16,905 bases of DNA from an uncultured Clostridia bacterium (GTDB taxonomy: Bacteria > Bacillota > Clostridia > TANB77 > CAG-508): assembly GCA_947632145.1 (NCBI GenBank), contig CANRNW010000023.1, forward strand, positions 1 to 16,905, in the 5' to 3' direction. Within the stretch, counting starts at the first letter, position 1. Every line of letters begins with the position of its first letter. Of the stretch, positions 1 through 16,905 are shown piece after piece. A program made the translations under genes and the position numbers. Under the pieces are notes generated by a model. It made no database searches and had not been told where the DNA came from. It worked only from the letters and a program-made list of their open reading frames with translations.

Positions 1-183
1 TTCATTTAATCCCATTACTTGATTTTCTGCCTCCATTTGTCTTATTCTTATTATCCAAGTTGGGGCATCTGTTGTTGTTCTTGTACCAGTTGGCTTACTT
101 TGGTAATTTGCTTGTACTCCTGTTGCTAGTATTGCTATTACTACCAACATAAGTGTTATTGTTAATACTATTTTTTTCTGCAT
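1..183 (-). CDS. Secreted paralog-family protein, copy X (first 61 codons only; the gene runs off the left edge)
   Basis: Bases 1-340 are identical to 880-1219. This is therefore the same N-terminus as the next copy (MQKKIVLTITLMLVVIAILATGVQA / NYQSKPTG...), with the same GGAG RBS (193-196). Confidence 0.7.
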   Translation of the reverse strand, partial: MQKKIVLTITLMLVVIAILATGVQANYQSKPTGTRTTTDAPTWIIRIRQMEAENQVMGLNE

Positions 184-273
184 CTTCATTTTCTCCTTTG
201 TATTTTTATATAGAACTCTCCATCGTGTTAAATATGCCTTCGAAGTGTGGTTCGCATATTATGCACACCTTAC
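184..273 (-). promoter_or_regulatory. Structured 5' leader of paralog copy X (identical to leader A)
   Basis: Identical in sequence to 1063-1152. See leader A for the structure model. Confidence 0.45.
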
Positions 274-345
274 ATAAATTTTTTACTATTAACTATTTAT
301 AATATTTTTTTGATTCGAAATATACTTTAATTATATTTCATCACA

Positions 346-1062
346 TTAAAATCCAAGGCCAGACACAGCTACAGTGCGAGCGTAGCAAGTACCACTAACA
401 TCGTGGTCGTGGAAATAGAACCCTCCTCCGTAGCCACGGCAAAAGCCGTAAGTTGCAGTGCTCAGCCAGTCGCCAGAACCACTACCGTGCCATCTTCTTG
501 TTTCCATTGTTGCATCTCCTGTTTTTGCTGAAACACTACTTGTTGTATACCTATTTATGTATCTTGGTGCTATACTAGTAGATATAAATGAAGATCCACC
601 TCCCGCTGCCCATTCAGATATATCATTATTTGATATTCTCATATCATAATACCCTATTTCATATACTCCATATACATTTCCTGTTGTTGTTGCTTTTACA
701 TCTGTTCCAGATGTTGTTGTGGAACCCTTATCCATTCTTCTTTCTTCTATACTATTTCCTTGTTTTCCATAACCTGATGCTCCAAATAGCAGTGTTGCAC
801 CATATTCTGTATTTTTTGCCATATGCACATCAATATTATTTGAATCTGTTGTTGCTAGTCCTGTCGTTGTGTCAATTTTTTCATTTAATCCCATTACTTG
901 ATTTTCTGCCTCCATTTGTCTTATTCTTATTATCCAAGTTGGGGCATCTGTTGTTGTTCTTGTACCAGTTGGCTTACTTTGGTAATTTGCTTGTACTCCT
1001 GTTGCTAGTATTGCTATTACTACCAACATAAGTGTTATTGTTAATACTATTTTTTTCTGCAT
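346..1062 (-). CDS. Secreted protein of unknown function, tandem paralog A (signal peptide; Thr/Gly-rich; GC-rich Cys-containing C-terminal module)
   Basis: ORF 346..1068. The first ATG (1068) lies only 3 nt after the GGAG RBS (1075-1072). The second ATG (1062) has 9-nt spacing and matches the MQKK start of copy B. The N-terminus is K-rich, then hydrophobic, then VQA|N, a typical Sec signal peptide. I recognise no family with confidence. Confidence 0.8.
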   Translation of the reverse strand: MQKKIVLTITLMLVVIAILATGVQANYQSKPTGTRTTTDAPTWIIRIRQMEAENQVMGLNEKIDTTTGLATTDSNNIDVHMAKNTEYGATLLFGASGYGKQGNSIEERRMDKGSTTTSGTDVKATTTGNVYGVYEIGYYDMRISNNDISEWAAGGGSSFISTSIAPRYINRYTTSSVSAKTGDATMETRRWHGSGSGDWLSTATYGFCRGYGGGFYFHDHDVSGTCYARTVAVSGLGF

Positions 1063-1219
1063 CTTCATTTTCTCCTTTGTATTTTTATATAGAACTCTCC
1101 ATCGTGTTAAATATGCCTTCGAAGTGTGGTTCGCATATTATGCACACCTTACATAAATTTTTTACTATTAACTATTTATAATATTTTTTTGATTCGAAAT
1201 ATACTTTAATTATATTTCA
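880..1219. repeat. Exact 340-bp direct repeat, copy 2 (partner 1-340)
   Basis: See the 1-340 repeat feature. Confidence 0.95.
1063..1152 (-). promoter_or_regulatory. Candidate cis-regulatory RNA leader of paralog A (P1 hairpin, loop-to-internal-loop pairing, P2 with CUUC anti-SD-like arm)
   Basis: mRNA sense: GUAAGGUGUGCAUAAUAUGCGAACCACACUUCGAAGGCAUAUUUAACACGAUGGAGAGUUCU, then an A-rich linker, then AAAGGAG and AUG. It aligns without gaps over 62 nt to leader B. Of the 15 differences, 11 preserve the proposed base pairs. Confidence 0.5.
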
Positions 1220-1224
1220 CGACA

Positions 1225-1956
1225 TTAAAATCCGAGACCAGACACAACTGCAACACGACCACAGTAGGAATTATTAGAACCACTGTCGCTGAAGCAGTAA
1301 AATCCGAAAGCTCCGCTGCCACCACGTCTAAATCCGTAAGTGTAGTAATTAAGCCAAGTGGCGCTTTTACTTTCATGCCAGTGTTTTGTTTCCATTGTTG
1401 CATCTCCTGATTTTGGGTCAGCATTACTAGAACCTGCTTTATATCTATTTATGTATCTTGGTGCTATACTAGTAGATATAAATGAAGATCCACCTCCCGC
1501 TGCCCATTCAGGTGTACCAATTTTCGATGTATTCATATTATAATACCCTATTTCATATACTCCATATACATTTCCTGTTGTTGTTGCTTTTACATCTGTT
1601 CCAGATGTTGTTGTAGAACCTGTATCCATTCTTCTTTCTTCTATACTACTTCCTTGTTTTCCATAATCTGATGCTCCAAATAATACTGATGCACCATATT
1701 CTGTATTTTTTTCCATATGCACATCAATATTGTTCGAATCTGTTGTTGCTAGTCCTGTCGTTGTGTCAATTTGTTCATTTAATCCCATTACTTGATTTTC
1801 TGCCTCCATTTGTCTTATTCTTATTATCCAAGTTGGGGCATCTGTTGTTGTTCTTGTACCAGTTGGCTTACTCTGGTAATTTGCTTGTACTCCTGTTGCT
1901 AGCATTAACATTACTACTAACATAAGTACTGTTGTTAATATTATCTTTTTCTGCAT
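1225..1956 (-). CDS. Secreted protein of unknown function, tandem paralog B
   Basis: The ORF track extends to 2106, but from a GTG inside a terminator stem and across the conserved leader. The real start is ATG 1956, 8 nt after the GGAGG RBS (1969-1965), giving MQKKIILTTVLMLVVMLMLATGVQA|NYQSKPTG. The N-terminal ~175 aa are near-identical to copy A, and the C-terminal ~60 aa diverge. Confidence 0.8.
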   Translation of the reverse strand: MQKKIILTTVLMLVVMLMLATGVQANYQSKPTGTRTTTDAPTWIIRIRQMEAENQVMGLNEQIDTTTGLATTDSNNIDVHMEKNTEYGASVLFGASDYGKQGSSIEERRMDTGSTTTSGTDVKATTTGNVYGVYEIGYYNMNTSKIGTPEWAAGGGSSFISTSIAPRYINRYKAGSSNADPKSGDATMETKHWHESKSATWLNYYTYGFRRGGSGAFGFYCFSDSGSNNSYCGRVAVVSGLGF

Positions 1957-2048
1957 TTTTATTTCCTCCTTTGTTTTTATATATGTAGAACCCTCCGTCG
2001 TATTAGGTATTCCTTCGGAGTATGGGTCGCATACCATGCGCCCTCTAC
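1957..2048 (-). promoter_or_regulatory. Candidate cis-regulatory RNA leader of paralog B
   Basis: mRNA sense: GUAGAGGGCGCAUGGUAUGCGACCCAUACUCCGAAGGAAUACCUAAUACGACGGAGGGUUCU. It has the same architecture as leader A, with compensatory substitutions. Confidence 0.5.
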
Positions 2049-2092
2049 AGTTTACATTGTGTGTTTTTGTGGGCATTTTTGTGAATATTTTT

Positions 2093-2149
2093 AAAAAAAA
2101 CCACACAAAATTTTACGTGTATTATAAATACACATAGAATTTTGTGTGG
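2093..2149 (-). terminator. Intrinsic terminator (compound hairpin plus U8) acting on minus-strand transcription
   Basis: The outer stem pairs 2101-2111 (ccacacaaaat) with 2139-2149 (attttgtgtgg), 11 bp. The inner stem pairs 2117-2123 (gtgtatt) with 2127-2133 (aatacac), 7 bp. The A8 run at 2093-2100 reads as U8 immediately 3' of the hairpin on the minus strand. Confidence 0.8.
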
Positions 2150-2182
2150 TTTCTATGTTTTATATTTGTTTTTATTAAATTT

Positions 2183-2217
<35 letters not shown>

Positions 2218-2269
2218 AGTCGCAAGGGTTGTAGCGTTTTGCATTTTACATTTCTCCTTTGTACTATTT

Positions 2270-2352
2270 GGGCGCAATCATGCGCCCCTACGTTTTTTTT
2301 GGTGCAATTATGCGACCTTACGTTTTTCGGTGAGGGTGCAATCATACACCCC
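2270..2352 (-). repeat. Three tandem GC-rich hairpin units related to the P1 hairpin of the paralog leaders
   Basis: Minus sense: CGUAGG GGCGC-AUGAUU-GCGCC C (2270-2287), CGUAA GGUCGC-AUAAUU-GCACC (2301-2317) and UGUAGG GGGUGU-AUGAUU-GCACCC (2334-2352). The units are spaced ~30 nt apart. Stem positions covary (C:G in unit 1 versus U:A and U.G in unit 3). All share the YGUAR prefix seen in leaders A and B. Confidence 0.7.
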
Positions 2353-2363
2353 CTACATATATA

Positions 2364-2392
2364 AATATATACCAATATGTTTTATTTGACAA
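2364..2392 (-). promoter_or_regulatory. Candidate sigma-A promoter for the orphan hairpin/microsatellite transcript
   Basis: Minus strand: TTGTCA (2392-2387), a 17-nt spacer, then TATATT (2369-2364). The predicted start near 2356 coincides with the G of GUAGGGGG at the 5' end of hairpin unit 3. Confidence 0.45.
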
Positions 2393-2474
2393 GGTTTTTT
2401 AATTATTTTCCCTACATTTTTAACTATTGTTTCTGTTTTGCATTGTTGCATAAAATCATGTAATTATCTGTTAA

Positions 2475-3497
2475 TTAGATATTATTTAATTTTTTTGTTT
2501 CTATAACAAGTTCATCAAAGTCGGAAATGTAATTTTTATCTTGTATAATTCTATATTTTTTATATTCATCTAATGCTAATTTATCTGCTATTTCTTTTTT
2601 TATTTTTCCATTATCTTTTAGAATATTATATTCATTTATTTTTAAGAATAATTCTAGCTTTTCCTTCCATTCTTGCATTGAAATAATCTTTCCTAATTTC
2701 ACTTGTCTTTCTGCATAATCTAGATACATTGATACCAAATTGTTTAGTTCGATAATTTCTTCCTTAGAAAGATAATTTTTGGCTGTTATTACATCTGTTT
2801 CAAGTATCTTTCCATCTGGTGCATTTTTCCAAGTTGTTAATCCCATATTTTCCTTTTTACTATTAACTCTATTATAAATTATTTCAGGTGCTGTCATTCC
2901 AGTAATAGCAAAGTGCAGTTTATTTTGAACATTCTTGTAAAATTCCTGTGTTATTTCACTATTTTTATCATAATCGAAACTGCATTCTTTGTATATATCA
3001 GTTATTTTTTGATAAAATCTTCTTTCACTTGCTCTTATTTCTTTTATTTTAACTAATAATTCATCAAAGTAATCTTTTCCAAACTTAGGTCCATTTTTTA
3101 ACATTTCACTATTAACAACAAATCCTTTTTTTATGTATTCTTTTAAGGTTTTTGTAGCCCAAATCCTAAAATCTGTTGCTTCTTTTGAATTTACTCTATA
3201 GCCAACTGCTATAATCGCATCTAAATTATAAAATGTTATTTCTCTTGAAACTTTTCGAGTACCTTCATTTTGAACTACTCTAATTTTTTGAGTAGTTCGA
3301 TTTTCATTTAATTCAGCTGTTTTAAATATATTTTGTAAATGGTATGTTATATTATTTTCGGCTATATTAAATAATTTTGACATTGATTTTTGAGTTAACC
3401 AAAAGTCTTCTTCGTTATACAAAACTTCTACTGATATATTTTCATTATTTTGACTTTGATATATTATTAAATCCTTTAAATTTTCTATATTATTCAT
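2475..3497 (-). CDS. RhuM-family (virulence-associated RhuM-like) protein
   Basis: The 340-aa ORF has the characteristic RhuM core (...RKVSREITFYNLDAIIAVGYRVNSKEATDFRIWATKTLKEYIKKGF... RASERRFYQKITDIY...). An AGGTGA RBS lies 6 nt before ATG 3497. Confidence 0.85.
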   Translation of the reverse strand: MNNIENLKDLIIYQSQNNENISVEVLYNEEDFWLTQKSMSKLFNIAENNITYHLQNIFKTAELNENRTTQKIRVVQNEGTRKVSREITFYNLDAIIAVGYRVNSKEATDFRIWATKTLKEYIKKGFVVNSEMLKNGPKFGKDYFDELLVKIKEIRASERRFYQKITDIYKECSFDYDKNSEITQEFYKNVQNKLHFAITGMTAPEIIYNRVNSKKENMGLTTWKNAPDGKILETDVITAKNYLSKEEIIELNNLVSMYLDYAERQVKLGKIISMQEWKEKLELFLKINEYNILKDNGKIKKEIADKLALDEYKKYRIIQDKNYISDFDELVIETKKLNNI

Positions 3498-3614
3498 TGT
3501 TAATCACCTCAATTAGTATTTTTATACCTCTTCCCTCTGCGTTTTTATTATTTTCTTTTCATAAATAATTAAATTTCATTTATATAATTATTTTAGTGTA
3601 AAACTTTTGTTTGT

Positions 3615-3643
3615 ATTATACCAAGAACTAATATATAAATCAA
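3615..3643 (-). promoter_or_regulatory. Sigma-A promoter with extended -10, upstream of the RhuM-family gene
   Basis: Minus strand: TTGATT (3643-3638), a 17-nt spacer ending in TGg, then TATAAT (3620-3615). This predicts a 5' UTR of ~110 nt. Confidence 0.6.
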
Positions 3644-3796
3644 TACATTTATTTGCACATTTTTTATTTTTTGACACACTACCCTCATTATGGAAGATAT
3701 CCACATCAAAAAAAGATTTTAGCAATATGAGTCGTCTTGTGTGCCAAGCCGATACCGTTATAACTATAAACATAATAATATAAAATTTAAGTAATT

Positions 3797-4150
3797 TTAT
3801 ATTATTTGCAGTATGTGATTTACCTTATATTCTGAATTTTTAAAATAAACTTCTATTACATCAAATCTTATATATTCATCTTGCAGATTTCTTGTATATA
3901 CATAGTATTTAGCAGTTCTATATAAATGTTTTAATTTTTCCTTGGTAACTGCTTCTGATGGCGTTCCATATTGTTTACTACTTCTAGTTTTCACTTCTAC
4001 AAAAACTAGATATTCATCTTTTAATGCAATTATATCGATTTCTCCTACTTTACTATAAAAGTTCCTTTCTATTATCTTATAGCCTTTTTCTAGTAAATAT
4101 TCTACGGCTATATCTTCTCCATTTTTTCCTAATATATGAGGTTTGTACAT
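3797..4150 (-). CDS. yraN: YraN-family (UPF0102) putative endonuclease
   Basis: The 117-aa ORF has the typical GE.IA..YL...GY.I..RN......GEIDIIA......VFVEVK.R pattern. A GGGAGG RBS lies before ATG 4150. Confidence 0.9.
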   Translation of the reverse strand: MYKPHILGKNGEDIAVEYLLEKGYKIIERNFYSKVGEIDIIALKDEYLVFVEVKTRSSKQYGTPSEAVTKEKLKHLYRTAKYYVYTRNLQDEYIRFDVIEVYFKNSEYKVNHILQII

Positions 4151-4165
4151 AATTCCTCCCTTTTT

Positions 4166-5051
4166 TCATATTATGGTAAATGTATTTCCTGGCAATCTAT
4201 TAACATATCCTTCTAATTCTAATATTGTTAATGTTGAACTTACTTCGTTTATATCTAACTTCGTTTTTTGACATATATTATTTATATGTATTGGTTCACT
4301 TCCTAAACATTGATAAACTGTTTTATATTCTTTGGGAATTTCTTCTATATTTAACTTTTTTACATAACTATTATTTTTATTATCTACCTTTAAATCTTTT
4401 AAAAATTTGTATTCTTTCAAAATATCTTCTACTGTTATCACACATTTAGCACCGTTTTGTAATAATCTATTTGTTCCAACACCTAATTTAGCACTTATGT
4501 CGTGTGGTATACAAAATATAGGTTTTTGCTCTTGCATTGCAAATCTAGCAGTAATGCTTGTTCCGCTTCTGTGTGCCGCTTCTATAACTAGTACCCCTAT
4601 TGACATTCCACTAACTATTCTGTTTCTCTGCACAAATAATTTTGAAGCTGCTTCTGTATTATCTTCATATTCGCTAATTACAGTGCCACCATTATCTATA
4701 ATTTGGTAAAATAATTCTTTATTTTGTTTAGGATATATTTTATTTAGTCCACATCCTAAAACTGCCACAGTTTTTCCGGTTTCACCAATTGCCCCTATAT
4801 GCGCTTCAGTATCTATTCCTAGCGCCATTCCGCTATTTATACATACTCCGCACACTCGAAAGTTTTTGTGCGAAATTTCTTGCAATCTTTCTTCCAACAT
4901 CTGTGCAATTTCTTGATCCAATTATTGCAATTCCTGGTTTATTTAATAAATCTACATTTCCTAAAACATGCAACTGCTTTGGTGGATTATTTATATTTCT
5001 CAAAATTTTAGGATATTCATCATCTTCTAATTTTATTTGTTTTATTTTCAT
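4166..5051 (-). CDS. dprA: DNA-processing protein DprA; reading frame interrupted once (surplus C at 4850)
   Basis: ORFs 4833..5051 and 4166..4921 join to ...GIAIIGSRNCTDVGRKIARNFAQKLSSV-GVCINSGMALGIDTEAH... when base 4850 is skipped. The joined length minus 1 is 885 nt, or 295 codons. The ATG at 5051 overlaps the comM stop (TAATG). Confidence 0.9.
4847..4850 (-). other. Zero-frame CGG / +1 shift site in dprA (GUG-C-GGA)
   Basis: Codon 68 of ORF 4833..5051 is CGG (4850-4848). GGA at 4849-4847 is in frame with ORF 4166..4921. Confidence 0.85.
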
Positions 5052-6592
5052 TACTTATTTCCCCAATACTTTCTATCAAGATTTCTATATTGTATTGCTT
5101 CTGCAATATGAACTGGTAGTATATTTTCTTCTCCTGCTAAATCTGCAATAGTCCTTGATACTTTCAATATTCTTCCATATGCTCTTGCACTTAACCCTAA
5201 TTTTTTAAACGCATTTTCTAGTATTCTTTTACCACTTTCATCTAGTTTGCAATATTTATCTATTAACTTTGGTGTTAACTCTGAATTAGAAAAAATTTTA
5301 TTGTTTTTATATCTCTCTAACTGTATTTTCCTTGCCTTATTTACTCTTTCTTTAATTTGCTCAGATGTTTCTGGCTTAACATCTGATTCTAATTTTTCAT
5401 ATTTAACTGGTGTTACTTCTATATGAATATCAATTCTGTCTAATAATGGTCCACTTATTTTTCCCATATATTTTGCAATTTGTTGTGGAGTACAATTACA
5501 TTCTTTATCTTTAGAACCGATAATAACCACAAGGGCATGGATTCATACTTGCAATTAAAACAAATTTTGCAGGATATGTTAAACTTGCATTTACTCTGCT
5601 TATTGTTACCTCTCCATCTTCTAATGGTACTCTCAAAACCTCTAGCGTGTTTTTTGCGAATTCTGGTAATTCATCTAAAAATAGCACTCCAAAATGAGCC
5701 AAACTTATTTCTCCGTGGTTTTGGTATTTTTCCACCTCCAGTTAACGAAACTGCTGAAACTGTGTGATGAGGTGCTCTGAAAGGTCTTGTTGTAATTAAA
5801 GGAATATTGCTTGGTAATGTACCGGCTATGCTATGTATTTTTGTTATTTCTAATGCTTCATCAAAACTTAAATCTGGTAATATCGTTGGCAATCTTCTTG
5901 CCATCATTGTTTTTCCTGATCCGTGGGCTTCCTATAAGTAGGCAATTATGGCCTCCTGCTGCAGATATTTCTAGAGCTCTTTTTATATTTTCTTGACCTT
6001 TTACCTCAGAAAAATCTAATAGAGAATTTTGATTATCTTCAAATAATTTATCTACATTTACAGTTTCAAAATTGATTTCTTCTGTCTTATTTAAAAAATC
6101 TATTACTTGCTTTAAATTTTTTGCTGGTATTACATTTATATTTTTTACTATTGCAGCTTCTTTTGCATTTTCTTCTGGTAAAATTACATTTTTTATACCT
6201 AATCTTGAAGCTTCTATACACATTGGTAAAACACCTTTTACTTTATTTAATTTACCATTTAAAGATAGTTCTCCGATGAATACATAATCTGAAATATTAA
6301 CAGTTTCAATCGTTTCAGTAGCCATTAGTATTCCTATTGCAATTGGTAAATCAAATAAAGATCCCTCTTTTTTAGTATTTGCTGGTGCTAAATTAACAAG
6401 TATTCTTCTGCTTGGAAATTCAATATCTGAATTTTTTATTGCAGTTTTTACTCTTTCTTTTGCTTCTTTTACACTAACATCTGGAAGACCTACTACTTCC
6501 CAAGATGGTAAGCCAGAAGAAACATCGACTTGAACTTCTATTAAATAACCATCAAGCCCATGTAATCCCATACTCTTTACTATGGATAACAT
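5051..6592 (-). CDS. comM: ComM/YifB-family Mg-chelatase-like AAA+ ATPase; reading frame interrupted three times (surplus C at 5923, 5715, 5519)
   Basis: Four overlapping ORFs join to ...[31 protein letters not shown]...[27 protein letters not shown]...[28 protein letters not shown].... The joined length minus 3 is 1539 nt, or 513 codons. Confidence 0.9.
5516..5519 (-). other. Zero-frame CGG / +1 shift site in comM (UAU-C-GGU)
   Basis: Codon 73 of ORF 5511..5735 is CGG (5519-5517). GGT at 5518-5516 is codon 5 of ORF 5051..5530. Confidence 0.85.
5712..5715 (-). other. Zero-frame CGG / +1 shift site in comM (CCA-C-GGA)
   Basis: Codon 65 of ORF 5671..5907 is CGG (5715-5713). GGA at 5714-5712 is codon 8 of ORF 5511..5735. 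Confidence 0.85.
5920..5923 (-). other. Zero-frame CGG / +1 shift site in comM, inside the Walker A motif (CCA-C-GGA)
   Basis: Codon 224 of ORF 5861..6592 is CGG (5923-5921). GGA at 5922-5920 is in frame with ORF 5671..5907 and gives GSPGSGKT. Confidence 0.85.
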
Positions 6593-6733
6593 ATGTTCAC
6601 TTCCTTATTAAATTGTTTTGTTATTTGGAAATTTTAATTAGAAAAAAATTTTTTGAATTAAATTATTTTAAGTTTACAGTAGTTTTATTAAAATTGCAAT
6701 AAAAATCGTATTACAAATTTCGACAAATTAAAT

Positions 6734-6754
6734 AAAAGTGGCAAAACCACTTTT
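6734..6754 (-). terminator. Hairpin terminator overlapping the spoIIE stop codon
   Basis: aaaagtgg (6734-6741), caaaa loop, ccactttt (6747-6754). On the minus strand the hairpin is followed by AUUUAAUUUG. The stop codon is at 6755-6753. Confidence 0.55.
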
Positions 6755-16587: not shown

Positions 16588-16905
16588 TTAATTAGTTTGA
16601 TTTATTCTTCTTTTCAAGTAGTCTGATAATTGTTTATCTGTACAATAAATATAACAACCTTTTTGCCCTCTGGTCATTAGTGTTCTGTATGTATTTTTTA
16701 TTATTTCATCTGCTATTTTTTCTGCTTTATCAAAATCTTGTTTAAACATTTTATATATTCCTTTAACGGATTGGTCTGTTTTTGCTCTTTCCGTAACATC
16801 TGTCACTATTTTACCATTTTCATATCTTAAATCATTTCCAATAATTACTCCAACATAATCAAATTCAAGTCCTTGTGCTGTATGTATACATCCTATTTCA
16901 TTTAC
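16588..16905 (-). CDS. DUF2075-family ATP-binding protein, C-terminal part (the gene continues beyond the right edge)
   Basis: The frame is open from 16905: VNEIGCIHTAQGLEFDYVGVIIGNDLRYENGKIVTDVTERAK...TYRTLMTRGQKGCYIYCTDKQL. This is the typical DUF2075 C-terminus. The ORF-track start at 16806 is an internal GTG. Confidence 0.75.
   Translation of the reverse strand, partial: VNEIGCIHTAQGLEFDYVGVIIGNDLRYENGKIVTDVTERAKTDQSVKGIYKMFKQDFDKAEKIADEIIKNTYRTLMTRGQKGCYIYCTDKQLSDYLKRRINQTN

Follow-up and report, generated by a model that had tools for sequence, protein, structure and literature searches.

Probable mosaic repeat with a GTAG-tagged palindrome in the leaders of secreted-protein genes of gut Clostridia

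The element considered in this work is a structured leader of 62–64 nucleotides (nt) which recurs on the minus strand of a 16,905-nt chromosome fragment of an uncultured Clostridia bacterium (contig CANRNW010000023.1, positions 1 to 16,905; hereafter the window), at the 5' ends of tandem paralogous genes for secreted proteins. On the basis of compensatory substitutions between two of its copies, leaders A and B, the element had been proposed to be a new cis-regulatory RNA, with helices P1 and P2 and a loop pseudoknot controlling access to the ribosome-binding site. Our analysis makes it likely that the leader represents a mosaic repeat specific to this lineage, one that contains a GTAG-tagged repetitive extragenic palindrome (REP), and not a dedicated riboswitch. 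P1 belongs to a dispersed, hairpin-constrained and strand-biased repeat family, and the 3' module of the unit is an optional companion without a conserved fold.

P1 as a member of a dispersed REP family

The comparison on which the original prediction was built proved to be correct. On the minus strand, leader A (1152–1091) and leader B (2048–1987) can be aligned over 62 nt with no gap. They are different at 15 positions (4, 5, 7, 9, 14, 15, 23, 27, 31, 38, 42, 43, 47, 52 and 57 of the unit), 11 of which fall within the base pairs that had been listed, and every listed pair was found as described. Both sides of a pair changed at 5:27, 7:23, 14:43 and 15:42, and one-sided changes to or from G.U occurred at 9:21, 31:54 and 33:52. 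The homology between the two units begins exactly at GTAG. P1, which in leader B occupies nt 1–25 (2048–2024) and is a REP-type hairpin, is real; compensatory changes keep its arms paired, and it is in sense orientation within a probable 5' untranslated region (UTR) or intercistronic spacer; what had to be given up is its specificity to the leader, as the GTAG repeat occurs at more than 40 unrelated sites in related genomes.

These genomes were represented by 75 loci encoding homologues of the protein downstream of the leader, all from metagenome-assembled genomes (MAGs) of gut Clostridia and 633 kb in total (labelled L001 and so on). GTAGGG combined with a stable hairpin was present there at 43 sites, versus 0–3 (mean 0.55) in 20 dinucleotide-preserving shuffles. 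The P1 module, GTAG followed by a GC-rich imperfect hairpin, has three further copies upstream in the window (2356–2270), which share with it the plan of GTA(G/A) and a GC-rich stem around GCAT..(A)TGC. The REPs described here are 21–26 nt long, with a stem of 7–10 bp and a loop of 3–4 nt; P1 of leader B contains a 1-nt bulge or a G x A mismatch. The tag GTAG(G)GG stands directly at the stem in leader B, in L196, in upstream copies 1 and 3 and in all 43 copies of the related loci, and is degenerate (GTAA) in leader A and upstream copy 2.

Among the stems, at least five variants with fully complementary changes in the two arms were distinguished (GGGTCGGCGTCCCCGACGACCC, GGAACGACGCCCTCGTCGTTCC, GGGTTGCATGGTATGCAACCC, GGGCGATTTTAATCGCCC and GGGCAGGCCCTGTGTCTGCCC), and sub-families of this kind are exemplified by GGGTCGGCG.., GGAACGACG.., GGGTTGCAT.. 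and GGGCGATT... G.U (G.T) pairs number 17 on the GTAG strand versus 6 on the opposite strand. Such data bear on the idea that the element acts at the level of DNA, as a palindromic operator of a dimeric repressor or as a sigma-54-type -24/-12 promoter (GG-N10-GC). Judged by eye, the three upstream hairpins do fit GG-N10-GC with TTGCA/TTGCG; however, leader A, L009 and L001, with stems of entirely different sequence, do not keep this spacing, and complementary arm changes together with the G.T pairs fit a hairpin rather than sequence-specific recognition of a duplex. We regard a DNA-level function of this type as extremely improbable. REP families persist as hairpin-forming units, with sub-families differing by complementary changes in the stem, and nt 1–25 of the leader are one such REP, having GTAG 0–2 nt before a GC-rich imperfect stem of 7–10 bp with a 3–4-nt loop. 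The compensatory substitutions in P1 are thus accounted for by a REP family that evolves as a hairpin, and they do not constitute evidence of a leader-specific regulatory fold.

The REP copies adjoin unrelated genes (rplT, rimM, fba encoding fructose-bisphosphate aldolase, uppS, acpS, and those for a nucleoside phosphorylase and a flavin reductase), frequently a few nt past the stop codon. Twenty-eight of 45 classified copies lie between two flanking genes, and between unidirectional genes the sense orientation was found 24 times (24 of the 28) and the antisense orientation once. Because GTAG is found on the coding strand in nearly all copies, transcription of the element is very probable, as part of the 5' UTR in the case of leader B and of intercistronic spacers in the case of leader A and its duplicate A'. 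There, the GC-rich hairpin would probably act passively, as an exonuclease barrier or as a determinant of mRNA processing or stability. Stabilisation of mRNA and termination of transcription were previously hypothesised as roles of REPs (Di Nocera 2013, PMC3733652).

Another explanation would be that the hairpins are simply intrinsic terminators sharing a sequence. Many copies outside the window precede T-runs just after stop codons (L009:7299, L010:8710, L013:3777 and L007:4229 among them), and copy 3 of the window is terminator-like on the plus strand. On the sense strand, however, the window copies precede A-rich or mixed sequence instead of U-runs, and both the conserved 5' GTAG tag and the intragenic copies would be left unexplained, which makes this explanation highly improbable.

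An intragenic REP (GTAGGGGTCGGCGTCCC.GACGACCC) stands at the same site of a large (>1200 aa) conserved open reading frame (ORF) in five loci (L006:6580, L008:6165, L009:3350, L012:6064 and L014:1598), where it is translated in frame as VGVGVPDDP. Within the leader of a short ORF at L001:4599–4690, the loop of a REP is apparently interrupted by about 45 inserted nt (GTAGGGGTCGGCG|...|TCCTCGACGACCCGC), and its arrangement suggests nested insertions into REPs.

By published criteria, REPs carry GTAG or GTGG 0–2 nt 5' of a hairpin whose stem has 7 bp or more and whose loop has 2–5 nt (Quentin 2018, PMC6006769); it was also reported that their sub-families have "alternative complementary stem residues" and frequent G.T pairs, lying mostly between unidirectional or convergent genes and sometimes within genes (Di Nocera 2013, PMC3733652). 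A Haemophilus REP, GTAGGGTGGGCTTCAGCCCACC, resembles the repeats found here (Nunvar 2010, PMC2817692). The likeness to such GTAG-tagged REPs (PMC2817692, PMC3733652, PMC6006769) covers the tag, the format of stem and loop, dispersal in multiple copies, location mainly between unidirectional genes and occasionally inside them, complementary stem sub-families, G.T pairs and inverted doublets. The repeats differ in occurring in uncultured low-GC gut Clostridia and, in several instances, in 5' leaders rather than 3' of genes; moreover, among the loci examined here, no cognate REP-associated tyrosine transposase (RAYT) flanked by the repeats was found. The REP surveys consulted here centre on Proteobacteria. 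The words Clostridia and Firmicutes are absent from Nunvar 2010 (PMC2817692), Di Nocera 2013 (PMC3733652) and RepRanger 2025, the last of which tabulates three Bacillota genomes, including that of the clostridial Acetivibrio clariflavus. A literature search with the repeat sequences themselves returned no relevant paper.

The window is a low-GC (~28 %) fragment whose genes include those for SpoIIE, Tex, DprA, ComM, YraN and RhuM. Read 5' to 3' on the minus strand, the locus comprises a promoter-like site, three hairpins, a Shine–Dalgarno (SD) sequence with a mini-ORF, a terminator-like hairpin, leader B with gene B, leader A with gene A, and leader A' with the truncated gene A'. Its features are as follows.

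2364–2392, minus strand: sigma-70-like promoter, TTGTCA-17-TATATT, 10 of 12 matches; also kept in L001, L012, L016 and L203
2332–2356, minus strand: REP copy 1, GTAGGGGGTGTATGATTGCACCCTC, upstream of the mini-ORF and approximately at the transcript start expected from the predicted promoter
2301–2321, minus strand: REP copy 2, GTAAGGTCGCATAATTGCACC, with a bulged C and the degenerate tag GTAA
2270–2291, minus strand: REP copy 3, GTAGGGGCGCATGATTGCGCCC
2181–2244, minus strand: mini-ORF, MQNATTLATVHTHTHTHTHTQ and stop, containing (CA)15 at 2214–2185
2090–2150, minus strand: long terminator-like hairpin with U8, between the mini-ORF and leader B
1985–2048, minus strand: leader B, 64-nt unit from GTAGAG to TTCTAC, 89 bits with covariance model R1
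1225–1956, minus strand: gene B, for a 243-aa secreted protein
1089–1152, minus strand: leader A, 64-nt unit between the stop codon of gene B and gene A; its tag is degenerate (GTAA), and its P1, having a G x A mismatch and a U.G pair, is weak
346–1062, minus strand: gene A, for a 238-aa paralogue with 76 % identity to the product of gene B
210–273, minus strand: leader A', identical to leader A, within a perfect 879-bp tandem duplication

The position downstream of yraN is common to the window and L001. The duplication (1–300 being 100 % identical to 880–1179) spans the leader and gene A together with a spacer of 72 nt, and the contig begins within the next duplication copy, so that the array may exceed its assembled length. 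On the plus strand of 2270–2330 the tandem REPs form hairpins followed by CTACGTTTTT(TTT), one of which (copy 3) scores as terminator-like; these tandem REPs could block antisense transcription into the rhuM side.

Architecture of the full unit and its 3' module

Full-length units were sought with nhmmer and with the covariance model (R1). The window holds three copies with two distinct sequences. Elsewhere, a full unit precedes a gene whose product is 67 % identical (L196:154–217), three units with an entirely different P1 stem lie upstream of a (CA)n mini-ORF (L001:4732–4796, L009:1069–1130 and L012:4525–4617), and one has neither an SD nor a gene start after it (L009:144–205). Look-ups of closer homologues yielded a single new full-length leader variant, that of L196, and a leader with the REP only, that of L203. 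The REP stands alone, without the 3' module, also at L009:1342, L012:4796 and L014:331. The element is missing from the mini-ORF leaders of L013 and L016, from the gene leader of L001 and from seventy-odd homologous gene leaders, and its position varies, being in front of the mini-ORF in the CANRED MAG (GCA_947629555.1) and in front of the gene in the window.

Several features could be expected of a dedicated riboswitch-like leader in which P1, P2 and the loop pseudoknot toggle access to the ribosome-binding site of the gene family. In leader B, RNAfold predicts a three-way junction of an outer stem (GUAGA/UCUAC), P1 and P2, which beats shuffled sequences (z = -2.26; 4 of 200 shuffles as stable); the pair-compatible A/B differences described above include the change of 14:43 and 15:42 from AA:UU to GG:CC; and the unit stands about 15–20 nt upstream of the SD in the window, in L196 and in three CANRED loci. 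On the other hand, P1 is a generic dispersed repeat, and the minimum-energy fold of leader A contains neither P1 nor P2 (z = -0.31). Pair counts were made on the only four distinct alignable copies of the long type (A, B, L196 and L001), and double-sided changes appeared solely in P1 and at 14:43 and 15:42. In P2, one of the helices first proposed, both sides of a pair never changed together and L196 carries an A x A mismatch, and the pseudoknot between the P1 loop and nt 41–43 reduces to a single event of covariation, since 14:43 and 15:42 are AA:UU in A, GG:CC in both B and L196, and unpaired in L001. Collecting homologous leaders and checking them for covariation, as had been advised, thus left double changes limited to P1 and that one pseudoknot event.

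The fold itself also varies from copy to copy. Minimum-energy structures contain P1 and P2 in B and L001, and a 7-bp helix, 14–20:37–43, which competes with P1, in A and L196; the L196 copy folds as one long hairpin, and L009 forms another 3' hairpin. The 3' region of L009, L012 and L013 forms a covarying local hairpin, NNCC-GAA-GGNN (CACC/GGUG, CGCC/GGCG and UACC/GGUA), which in L009 and L012 takes the place of P2. No single architecture is conserved among the copies. Neither ligand sensing nor the notion that the element sequesters and frees the ribosome-binding site found support. The better partner of CUCC is the upstream GGAG decoy, with 5 bp, compared with 4 bp for the true SD; the SD is therefore predicted to stay free, and no switch is indicated. 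Moreover, the leader regions of B and A are 72–80 % identical, less than the N-terminal two-thirds of the coding region (88–100 %), which weakens the impression of a conserved leader. The suggested comparison with known RNA families was made by cmscan against Rfam 15, which at E up to 10 returned nothing at 1091–1152, 1987–2048 or 2270–2356; the sole matches were spurious miRNA models on the terminator hairpin. With P1 being a dispersed repeat, folds varying among copies and orthologous leaders lacking the element, we consider a new riboswitch-like RNA very unlikely. Readings as an integron attC site, a CRISPR repeat, a ribonucleic antiterminator (RAT) or other antiterminator-binding site, or a T-box were dropped, as size and motifs did not fit and Rfam gave them no support.

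Nt 26–64 form a second module, found together with the REP in only a few copies. CYYCGAAGG and the SD-like GGAGGG are part of it, and it ends with TTCTAC, the inverse of the tag; in leader B it reads CUCCGAAGG, followed by GGAGGG and the inverted tag TCTAC. A scan of metagenome contigs for CCGAAGG-N(1-30)-GAGGGTTCTA gave 120 stretches, apparently by chance; eight low-GC ones were inspected and none had a REP or SD context.

One explanation of the module's origin would be that it is itself a degraded REP, the whole 64 nt being a decayed inverted doublet, similar to a REPIN (a REP doublet forming a hairpin) or a MITE (a miniature transposable element with inverted repeats), whose right half is the inverted left REP. 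This would account for the GTAGAG/TTCTAC ends as an outer stem, and for the "pseudoknot" as complementarity of nt 37–43 to the loop and 3' arm of P1. Indeed, the unit ends pair (P0; 92 % of cells paired), segment 37–43 (GCATACC/GCATATT) complements the loop together with the 3' arm of P1 exactly, L196 folds as a single long hairpin, and true inverted REP doublets exist at L022:3334/3461, at L068:6357/6432 and in L209. Nevertheless, the 3' half is only weakly similar to a reverse-complemented REP (p = 0.15, 0.32, 0.02, 0.05, 0.81 and 0.13 in six copies, which does not reach significance overall), and the 18-nt loop of the P2 stem is unlike a REP. The module may be a decayed inverted REP, although as an account of the entire unit we find this origin possible but on the doubtful side. 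The unit resembles REPINs and bacterial interspersed mosaic elements (BIMEs; Bertels & Rainey 2011, PMC3116915) in starting with GTAGAG and ending with TTCTAC and in combining a REP with other conserved motifs as a mosaic; it differs in that one and the same REP cannot be recognised in its two halves, and in having a spacer of only ~3–11 nt.

Firmicutes mRNAs are known to be stabilised by 5'-UTR elements such as 5' stem-loops and the STAB-SD of cryIIIA. The unit is like them in having a hairpin near the predicted 5' end and, roughly 20 nt upstream of the true SD, the SD-like GGAGGG; it differs in being a dispersed repeat and not a gene-specific leader. A further alternative would be that a REP-derived unit was co-opted, GTAG...CTAC being a recombining 5'-UTR cassette of the gene family, either stabilising mRNA by the 5' hairpin and a STAB-SD-like GGAGGG decoy or tuning translation by competition between P1 and the 14–20:37–43 helix. 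Almost all full units belong to leaders of the secreted-protein family or its (CA)n mini-ORF. Both GGAGGG and CUCC show conservation, three variants retain the alternative helix, and in the window GTAG lies approximately at the start expected from the predicted promoters. However, distinct alignable copies number only four, the favoured fold depends on the copy (P1 with P2 for B and L001, and for A and L196 the alternative helix), the copy at L009:144 has no SD after it, and promoter-like matches were no commoner than in shuffles (10 versus 12.5 +/- 3.8). We therefore hold co-option to be unlikely.

Some observations do weigh against a purely repeat-based interpretation. The full unit is found just upstream of the SD in most copies, and A, B and L196 all retain the 7-bp helix 14–20:37–43, with double changes at two neighbouring pairs; thus, some leader-specific function may exist. 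Only a single 16.9-kb contig of the genome of the window was available, with all six copies at one locus, so that dispersal of the REP is demonstrated in relatives and not in this organism. Finally, no RAYT flanked by GTAG hairpins was detected in a motif scan of all ORFs in the loci or in the flanks of transposase homologues.

Adjacent leader ORF, secreted proteins and Y1 transposases

A separate regulatory arrangement lies between the upstream REPs and leader B, where a 20-aa leader ORF (MQNATTLATVHTHT..) with (CA)n is followed by a long terminator hairpin (2090–2244, minus strand). The same layout was found at L001:4816–4990, L009:1157–1290, L012:4641–4790 and L013:4771–4930, and the (CA)n mini-ORF with its terminator is kept upstream of the secreted-protein family in many MAGs. 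The three frames after (CA)15 stop at +1, +29 and +60 nt, the last of these within the terminator loop; as assembled, the mini-ORF of the window is in the early-stop frame, and in L017 and for proteins P0057 and P0067 one frame is instead fused to the gene itself. This looks like a phase-variable attenuator of the pil1 type. In the pil1 leader peptide of S. gallolyticus, GCAGA repeats were demonstrated experimentally to control ribosome-induced destabilisation of a terminator (Danne 2014, PMC3894217). Common to both are a simple-sequence repeat in a short leader ORF and a stem-loop terminator, with the frame setting how far the ribosome would reach into the terminator; the differences are the repeat, which is (CA) and not GCAGA, the downstream products, which are secreted proteins and not pili, and the basis of the assignment, which here is a reading of the sequence. 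The genes for a ComM-like Mg-chelatase and SpoIIE (5051–6592 and 6753–8977, minus strand) are each split into two or three overlapping ORFs, which indicates frameshift errors of assembly or pseudogenes. If these are assembly errors, the exact (CA)n count is uncertain too.

The downstream family is multi-copy and consists of secreted proteins with a length of about 240 aa. It has 71 homologues in MAGs of gut Clostridia, where a genome often contains several of them and they are often located close to the end of a contig. Its signal peptide ends with VQA|NYQS, invariant motifs include IRQME and NNIDVHxxKNTEYGA, and the C-terminal third is hypervariable between paralogues. The products of genes A and B matched no Pfam or NCBIfam family. 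An AlphaFold2 model of the downstream protein (predicted local distance difference test, pLDDT, 70) gave no significant match in a Foldseek search of the PDB, the top ones being formylglycine-generating enzyme, PorK and langerin, a C-type lectin, all with E > 2. Genes of the family are often preceded by one whose product ends with ..GYW(I/M)SKY(E/Q)L (for example in L019, L034, L059, L065 and L068), which suggests a conserved two-gene arrangement with a partner protein.

In Proteobacteria, REPs are recognised as single-stranded DNA by RAYT/TnpA-REP enzymes. The motif scan of all ORFs in the loci revealed one Y1 transposase, at L063:2298–2976, which matches PF01797 (2.6e-12) and whose best NCBIfam match, NF047646 (REP_Tyr_transpos), scored 79 bits where the cutoff is 80. 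The protein collection contains 1197 homologues of this transposase, which is widespread in gut Clostridia. These Y1_Tnp proteins (L063; L206–L213:2501–3181) are 226 aa long, with the HUH motif HAHIL, the catalytic-tyrosine motif YIYNNPV and a C-terminal extension. In L063 and the four homologue loci examined they are flanked by 25-bp terminal inverted repeats, GTCAATGGGGACGGAGAATTTTGAC, rather than by GTAG hairpins, and hence they are not assignable as the enzyme acting on the REPs described here. Their terminal repeats contain GGGGACGG, near the published GGGG[AT][CG]A[CG] of TIRYT (tyrosine transposases associated with terminal inverted repeats) or subclass 2.1 Y1 transposases (Di Nocera 2013, PMC3733652; Quentin 2018, PMC6006769). 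The arrangement of their flanks likewise fits this type. The inverted GTAG-REP doublet of L209 is 0.8 kb from a Y1 transposase, and the L063 transposase is directly downstream of a member of the secreted-protein family.

Significance of the repeat family

In its strongest form, a functional interpretation would regard the GTAG...CTAC 64-nt unit as a previously undescribed composite cassette of gut Clostridia, composed of a REP hairpin, the competing 7-bp helix (14–20:37–43) and a decoy SD, and taken over as a module of 5' UTRs or intercistronic spacers, where it would determine the stability or the translation of mRNAs from phase-variable genes for secreted proteins while spreading among their leaders by recombination or REP-type mobilisation. 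We consider this proposal distinctly unlikely in its entirety. The interpretation which we judge likely, that of a mosaic repeat, averts a false lead: covariation between two paralogous leaders that resembled that of a riboswitch stems from a repeat family evolving as a hairpin. It documents GTAG-tagged REP-type repeats in uncultured low-GC gut Clostridia, where they accumulate in front of the genes of a multi-copy, phase-variable secreted-protein family, within the leaders. Such repeats are of relevance to the annotation of intergenic "structured RNAs" in MAGs, and to the question which enzyme maintains REPs in Firmicutes.

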